Source: Enterobacteria phage ID18. From it: a stretch of 5,486 bases of DNA. Numbering within the stretch: position 1 is the first letter of the stretch; each line of letters starts with the position of its first letter. The notes below the pieces were generated by a model that was not told the DNA's origin, ran no database searches, and saw only the letters and a list, made by a program, of their open reading frames with translations. Below, piece after piece: positions 1,996 to 3,928 of this stretch. The position numbers and the translations under genes were made by a program. Location: the sequence record NC_007856.1. The stretch is one strand, 5' to 3'.

Positions 1996-2443
1996 GAACG
2001 CAGTAGCCTTTCAAACCGCTATTGCCTCCATCAAACTTATTCAGGCATCTTCTGTTCTTGACCTGACTGAGGACGATTTCGAATTCTTAACTCGTGACCG
2101 TGTATGGATTGCAACTGACCGCTCCCGTGCTCGCCGCGCTATTGAGGCTTGCGTTTATGGAACTCTGGACTTTGTGGGATACCCTCGCTTTCCTGCTCCT
2201 ATTGAGTTTATTGCTGCCGTCATTGCTTATTATGTTCATCCCGTTAACATTCAAACGGCATGTCTTATTATGGAAGGCGCTGAATTCACCGAAAACATCA
2301 TTAATGGTGTCGATGCCCCGGTTAAAGCCGCTGAACTCTTCGCGTTTACCTTGCGTGTACGCGCCGGAAACACTGAGCTTATTACTTACGCAGAAAACAA
2401 TGCGCGTGAAAAACTGCGCGCTCAAGGAGTGATGGATGTCTAA
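1982..2443 (+). CDS. D: External scaffolding protein D (153 aa)
   Basis: ORF with AAGGA at 1970-1974 about 7 nt before the ATG. The product is nearly collinear with phiX174 protein D (FQTAIASIKLIQAS..VLDLTEDDF, YGTLDFVGYPRFPAP, IAAVIAYYVHPVNIQTACLIMEGAEFTENIINGV). The start overlaps the C stop at 1993-1995. Confidence 0.92.
   Translation: MKANENAVAFQTAIASIKLIQASSVLDLTEDDFEFLTRDRVWIATDRSRARRAIEACVYGTLDFVGYPRFPAPIEFIAAVIAYYVHPVNIQTACLIMEGAEFTENIINGVDAPVKAAELFAFTLRVRAGNTELITYAENNAREKLRAQGVMDV
2157..2432 (+). CDS. E: Lysis protein E (91 aa; single-gene lysis, MraY inhibitor), nested in gene D in the +1 frame
   Basis: ATG at 2157 with GAGG at 2144-2147. The product MELWTLWDTLAFLLLLSLLLPSLLIMFIP... 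has the hydrophobic N-terminal transmembrane segment with the conserved Pro21 and the ...RLPCVYA... C-terminal region of phiX174 E. The track ORF starts at an upstream GTG (2094) and is over-extended. Confidence 0.85.
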   Translation: MELWTLWDTLAFLLLLSLLLPSLLIMFIPLTFKRHVLLWKALNSPKTSLMVSMPRLKPLNSSRLPCVYAPETLSLLLTQKTMRVKNCALKE

Positions 2444-3836: not shown

Positions 3837-3845
3837 AACAAAACG

Positions 3846-3881
3846 TTGAACGGGTACAAATTTTAATTTGTGCCTGTTCAA
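3846..3881 (+). other. F-G intergenic imperfect hairpin (about 13-bp stem including G-T/G-U wobble pairs, AT-rich loop)
   Basis: 3846-3858 (TTGAACGGGTACA) pairs with 3869-3881 (TGTGCCTGTTCAA) around the loop AATTTTAATT. It sits in the 92-nt F-G untranslated region, which in phiX-like phages holds the post-F terminator and complementary-strand priming signals. Confidence 0.4.
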
Positions 3882-3928
3882 GGTTGAACAAGCGAAGCGC
3901 GTTAGCTAACTTACTTAAGGAAATTCTC

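Follow-up and report, generated by a model that had tools for sequence, protein, structure and literature searches.

The stretch of DNA considered here (the window, meaning the whole sequence analysed, 5486 nt) is a complete G4-like microvirus genome. In megablast searches of GenBank phages, its nearest match is coliphage WA14, classified as Microviridae, Bullavirinae, Gequatrovirus, with 98.4% identity over 100% of the window, followed by EMCL318 with 97.5% and other G4-group phages with 82-85%. A 5486-nt IMG/VR genome shows no difference from the window across positions 1582-2840. The locus of interest is a pair of overlapping genes on the + strand. The host frame is gene D (1982-2443), which encodes the external scaffolding protein of 153 aa (Pfam gpD PF02925, 4.5e-83) and carries the same coordinates in the WA14 annotation. 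Entirely within D lies gene E (2157-2432, + strand), a single-gene lysis protein recognized by Pfam, PDB and exact-protein matches. Its frame runs from an ATG at 2157 to a TGA at 2430-2432, a total of 91 codons specifying MELWTLWDTLAFLLLLSLLLPSLLIMFIPLTFKRHVLLWKALNSPKTSLMVSMPRLKPLNSSRLPCVYAPETLSLLLTQKTMRVKNCALKE, and its offset of 175 nt from the D start places it in the +1 frame of D. The original prediction of a 91-aa lysis gene lying out of frame inside D is borne out both by re-reading the ORF and by the WA14 annotation, which gives E the same coordinates. An exact-sequence look-up further identifies all 91 residues as gpE of Enterobacteria phage ID18 (YP_512794.1 / AAZ49373.1); the two do not differ at any position and represent the same gene. 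Gene E of ID18 has already been deposited, annotated and understood, and is in that sense ordinary.

The same +1-frame-in-D arrangement occurs in 12 annotated relatives, and E is annotated at corresponding coordinates in WA14, EMCL318, phiX174, G4, ID2, ID204, ID11, NC2, WA3, ID32 and ID62. Pfam assigns the neighbours of E in the window, namely D, J, C and K, to the same virus family. Gene J (2436-2516, + strand, 26 aa) matches Pfam Microvir_J at 2.3e-16 and is likewise annotated in WA14. The E stop codon, the J start codon (ATG, 2436-2438) and the D stop codon (TAA, 2441-2443) all fall within 14 nt, with J beginning 3 nt past the E stop in E's own frame and overlapping the end of D by 8 nt. 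E and J are thus separated by TGA-TGG only, and read-through of the E stop would yield an E-J fusion. In phiX174, by contrast, E and J occupy different frames. The D protein of the window ends in GVMDV rather than GVM and thereby exceeds the D proteins of phiX174 and G4 by two C-terminal residues (153 versus 152 aa overall). While E extends beyond the end of D in G4 and WA3, that of the window is fully embedded, like that of phiX174.

Upstream of D, a sigma-70-like promoter (TTGACA, 18 nt, TATTAT; 1913-1942, + strand) matches the consensus at 11 of 12 positions and ranks first among the sites in 1600-2700. Given where it lies with respect to D, it is probably the D promoter (P_D), which would transcribe D and E together. 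A second sigma-70-like site (TTAACA, 16 nt, TATTAT; 10/12) lies at 2244-2271 within the D/E overlap, directly after the stretch encoding the helix of E, and may be a chance match. Five promoter-like sites are seen in 1600-2700, compared to 1.5 expected from shuffles. Between J and F, a GC-rich hairpin with perfectly paired arms (AGGGGC-TTCG-GCCCCT, 2523-2538) is probably a transcript terminator or stabiliser; its position presumably matches that of the corresponding phiX174 hairpin. Farther downstream, the F-G intergenic region (3837-3928, 92 nt) contains a long hairpin (3842-3885) whose 21-nt arms pair imperfectly. It does not align with the 136-nt F-G region of G4, which carries that phage's annotated complementary-strand origin and primer site, and the complementary-strand priming site of this G4-like phage is not obvious.

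The start codon of E and the longer open frame

The mechanical ORF containing E reaches upstream to a GTG at 2094, which would give a product of 112 aa. The original prediction had nonetheless placed the true start at the ATG at 2157 and had assigned E a GAGG Shine-Dalgarno sequence of its own. Both choices hold up. The GAGG can be read directly at 2144-2147 (+ strand), 9 nt before the ATG, and ATG and GAGG alike are invariant in all 25 sequences of a conservation sample that comprises 18 distinct E proteins from Gequatrovirus, Sinsheimervirus and Alphatrevirus. The invariance of these signals depends on particular D codons, TAT for Tyr and GAG for Glu. The GAGG itself consists of D's Glu codon GAG and the first G of the next Ala codon, and the synonymous GAA is never used in any of the 25. 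Around the ribosome-binding site of E (2125-2185), predicted RNA structure does not exceed that of shuffled sequences (z=0.89). For phiX174 E, the classical work of Barrell et al. in 1976, cited in PMC4825663, is said to provide direct evidence for the start.

A longer protein initiated at GTG 2094, with 21 extra N-terminal residues, is nevertheless worth weighing, as the frame is open from that codon, GTG is found at -21 in 17 of the 25 sequences, and the stretch upstream of the ATG is mostly open, with the in-frame stop lying at -23 codons in 21 of the 25 relatives. Several observations argue against it. In the remaining sequences the -21 codon is GCG (7 sequences of the G4 group) or GTA (phiX174), and two alpha3-like genomes carry an in-frame stop five codons upstream of the ATG. 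Nothing purine-rich and no Shine-Dalgarno sequence precedes GTG 2094 (GAATTCTTAACTC), in contrast to the invariant GAGG and ATG downstream. E starts at the ATG in every database record examined, alignments with the E chains that were expressed for structure determination begin at residues 3-5 of the shorter protein, and strong conservation of D in the upstream stretch accounts for the open frame. Due to the frame being open to the -23 stop in most relatives, the longer product is disfavoured but not refuted, and we consider it very improbable. The E start is one of several that the mechanical ORF track misplaces in this genome. For instance, gene A begins at ATG 29 in the track and at ATG 59 in the WA14 annotation, the latter preceded by GGAGG at 45-49, and gene G begins at TTG 3884 in the track and at ATG 3929 in the annotation.

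Membrane topology and the proposed route to lysis

E matches the Pfam family Microvir_lysis (PF04517) over residues 35-73 with 59.7 bits against a cut-off of 25 (E=2.6e-16). Among PDB chains it matches 8G02_B, the 'Lysis protein E' of phiX174, at 6.9e-34 and 8G01_B, the E protein of phage ID21, at 1e-21. Both entries are described as E chains of the cryo-EM MraY-E-SlyD 'YES' complex (PMC10914600). By these sequence matches, E is a member of the Microvirus lysis protein E family, the family of phiX174 E. A tblastn search with E reached a coverage of 67% as the low-complexity filter masked the helix, and the identity bands obtained in this way refer to residues 31-91 only. Across the sample, E proteins measure 76, 91, 96, 103 or 105 aa. 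At the nucleotide level, about 80 nt (roughly 2166-2244) are nearly invariant from phiX174 to the alpha3-like phages.

Three segments can be distinguished along the protein. Residues 1-9 (MELWTLWDT, 2157-2183, + strand) are acidic, with no K/R and two D/E, vary between lineages, and are predicted to be periplasmic. They are followed by a predicted transmembrane helix, residues 10-29 (LAFLLLLSLLLPSLLIMFIP, 2184-2243, + strand), which is unchanged in 22 of the 25 sequences. The best 19-residue Kyte-Doolittle window covers residues 10-28 with a mean of 2.79, and the same scale applied to all 91 residues detects no second strongly hydrophobic segment. Within the helix, Pro21 is encoded by CCG at 2217-2219 (+ strand). 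Residues 33-91 (2253-2429, + strand), which include the PF04517 match, form a basic domain predicted to be cytoplasmic, with 11 K/R and one His as opposed to two D/E. This charge distribution fits an N-out, C-in topology under the positive-inside rule. The hydrophobic N-terminal helix, the proline at position 21 and the basic C-terminal tail had all been anticipated by the original prediction, which named loss of the proline or interruption of the frame in close relatives as grounds for abandoning it; all 25 sequences, spanning three genera, keep both the proline and the open frame. In the related ID52-E, replacement of this proline (P21A) abolished lysis (PMC11126076).

Together with the conservation described above, these features almost certainly identify 2157-2432 as gene E of ID18, a gene with its own ribosome-binding site whose product would bind MraY through the Pro21-containing helix, have its cytoplasmic domain held by SlyD, and lyse the host. 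In the proposed mechanism, E would lie on the same mRNA as D and be translated in the +1 frame, starting at a weak ribosome-binding site of its own (GAGG, 9 nt, ATG). The 91-aa protein would enter the inner membrane via the single Pro21-containing helix near its N-terminus (residues about 10-32), directing the short acidic N-terminus to the periplasm and the basic C-terminal domain to the cytoplasm. As judged from the homologous E proteins of phiX174 and ID21, the helix would then bind and block the lipid I synthase MraY while the host chaperone SlyD holds the cytoplasmic domain. The supply of peptidoglycan precursors would stop, and the growing cell would burst at the septum.

MraY as the target, the involvement of SlyD and lysis by this particular E are thus inferred from work on related proteins. 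PMC4825663 describes E as encoded inside D and as binding MraY through its transmembrane domain, with SlyD required for the protein to be stable. Expression alone is reported to cause lysis for the E proteins of phiX174, G4, alpha3 and ID52 (PMC11126076). A different mode of killing has been put forward, in which E is a real lysis protein that oligomerizes into a transmembrane tunnel through the envelope instead of inhibiting MraY. This model and the accompanying images are, according to passages of PMC11126076, still cited in the bacterial-ghost literature. However, the structures 8G01 and 8G02 are described as showing E bound to MraY and SlyD, a preprint lists E among the type I, MraY-inhibiting single-gene lysis proteins (bioRxiv 10.1101/2023.10.16.562596), and overexpression of mraY protects against ID52-E, itself a G4-group E (PMC11126076). 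A tunnel is therefore scarcely to be expected here, and inhibition of MraY is the preferred reading.

The place of SlyD in the preferred mechanism is less secure. ID52-E was found to lyse a slyD knockout (PMC11126076), which makes SlyD dependence unsafe as a defining feature of G4-group E proteins. By the same token, the slyD-suppression experiment suggested with the original prediction may fail for a genuine E. It is therefore not assured that the E protein of the window would depend on SlyD.

Selection on the E frame

An open frame is by itself a poor guide to an overlapping gene. When D was recoded synonymously 20,000 times with the codon usage of this genome's F, G and H genes, 6% of the recodings still gave a +1 ATG-initiated ORF of at least 91 codons (p ~0.06). 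The openness of the E frame is accordingly weak evidence for a gene and was left out of the case for E; this test on its own would have been unconvincing.

Variation at silent sites of D is far more informative. The third codon position of D is the second position of E, so that silent changes in D alter E. Third positions of D were compared across representatives of the three genera, a silent site being defined as one where the D residue is invariant and the position degenerate. In the 50 D-only codons upstream of E, mean pairwise identity at third positions is 0.52 and 3 of 28 silent sites are invariant. Under E residues 10-32, identity rises to 0.94 with 16 of 21 silent sites invariant, a marked difference from the D-only codons (Fisher p=4e-6). 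It then falls back to 0.58 under residues 33-64 and 0.53 under residues 65-91. For these two segments combined (residues 33-91), 5 of 38 silent sites are invariant, and no extra constraint is detected relative to the 3 of 28 in D-only codons (p=1.0). Since the suppression is confined to the helix, selection on E is concentrated there. This agrees with the account in PMC4825663 of the transmembrane region as the essential, MraY-binding part of the protein.

Suppression at synonymous sites is the best independent evidence for E that the sequence offers, and homology combined with suppressed D-synonymous variation under the helix goes far beyond what chance would be expected to produce. The idea that the ORF is a mere by-product of the D amino-acid sequence, open by chance and with no functioning gene here, can draw on the 6% of recodings that retain such a frame and on the unconstrained C-terminal half of E, yet its probability is negligible in view of the silent-site suppression under the helix, the retention of frame, ATG, GAGG and Pro21 in 25 of 25 sequences across three genera, the strong Pfam family and PDB matches, and the annotations of WA14 and EMCL318, both nearly identical to the window, whose 11 genes include no other lysis gene. 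For the functioning gene E, the silent-site test has the further merit of separating the truly selected part, the MraY-binding helix, from the remainder, which drifts along with D.

Such drift can be seen among the closest relatives. The gpE proteins of WA14 and EMCL318 (DQ079909, MG563770) have the same coordinates, length, frame, stop, helix and central region as E of the window and are identical to it at 82 of 91 residues. The nine substitutions from these phages to the window (H3L, S7W, A8D, I9T, N74S, T82M, H83R, Y87C and V88A) are all silent in D. Indeed, the D proteins of WA14 and the window are identical, while that of EMCL318 differs at two residues. Between the window and WA14, gene D shows 12 differences, none of which alters the D protein; 11 of these lie in E and 9 of the 11 change E. 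Likewise, a metagenomic relative (L014) encodes a D protein identical to that of the window and an E protein that differs at 15 residues. Many changes in E alongside an unchanged D protein are a consequence of the coincidence between the third codon position of D and the second of E.

Of the 86 differences between the window and WA14, four are packed into 19 nt at 2164-2182, where they account for H3L, S7W, A8D and I9T and leave D unchanged. The window shares GTGGGATACC with L014, phiX174 and ID32, while WA14 and EMCL318 have the G4-resembling GTCGGCTATC. This clustering suggests either recombination over a short stretch or recurrent change. The W7 of the window is also present in phiX174 and alpha3-type E proteins, and yet S7W abolished lysis in ID52-E (PMC11126076). 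The alternation of W7-D8-T9 with S7-A/G8-I9 in this periplasmic patch among close relatives, despite the lethality of S7W in ID52-E, hints at epistasis or at short recombined segments within the overlap.

With residues 33-91 free of extra constraint and variable relative to WA14 and L014, binding of SlyD is not readable from the sequence. One could go further and propose that E of this lineage is SlyD-independent, with a cytoplasmic half that is essentially a passenger of the silent sites of D. This is suggested by the absence of detectable selection on that half, by the 9-15 E residues that differ at identical D, and by the residue at position 3, which is Leu in the window, Arg in phiX174 E and His in R3H, a SlyD-bypass mutant of phiX174 E (PMC4825663). 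We regard such independence as possible but rather unlikely.

Comparison with related and analogous lysis proteins

The closest structural reference is phiX174 E (8G02 chain B), which also has 91 aa, occupies the +1 frame of D, has the same GAGGCTTGCGTTTATGG start context, and ends at the same TGA stop within the Val-Met codons of D. In the alignment with phiX174 and G4 E recommended along with the original prediction, residues 4-29 are identical between the window and phiX174, as are 31 of the 35 N-terminal residues and 69 of 91 overall. The window has E2/L3, L30, H35, L37 and L38 where phiX174 has V2/R3, S30, P35, S37 and S38, in addition to scattered C-terminal changes. G4, the type phage of the window's genus, shares the start context and Pro21, but its E protein has 96 aa, is encoded by a frame that reaches 10 nt beyond D, and carries F19 and T26 in the helix. 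Only 53 of 91 residues agree with G4 E. E of the window lies nearer to phiX174 E than to G4 E although the genome is G4-like.

Nucleotide identities vary along the D gene. In the D-only 5' part, the window is closer to G4 (0.87) than to phiX174 (0.74), while under E residues 33-91 it is closer to phiX174 (0.85 and 0.80) than to G4 (0.81 and 0.70). Such mosaic similarity in 1982-2443 would fit past recombination between genera.

Gene E within D is a textbook overlapping gene and the exact protein is already in RefSeq, so it carries little weight as a discovery. Comparable solutions are known from other phages. For instance, MS2 L, LysM of phage M and Sgl of PP7 are likewise small membrane proteins whose reading frames overlap an essential gene out of phase. 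Type I single-gene lysis proteins are characterized as blocking the supply of lipid II (bioRxiv 10.1101/2023.10.16.562596). For LysM and the PP7 protein the target is MurJ, while MS2 L is a type II protein and stands apart from the enzyme inhibitors. All three belong to RNA phages and their sequences are unrelated to E, making them analogues of E rather than relatives.
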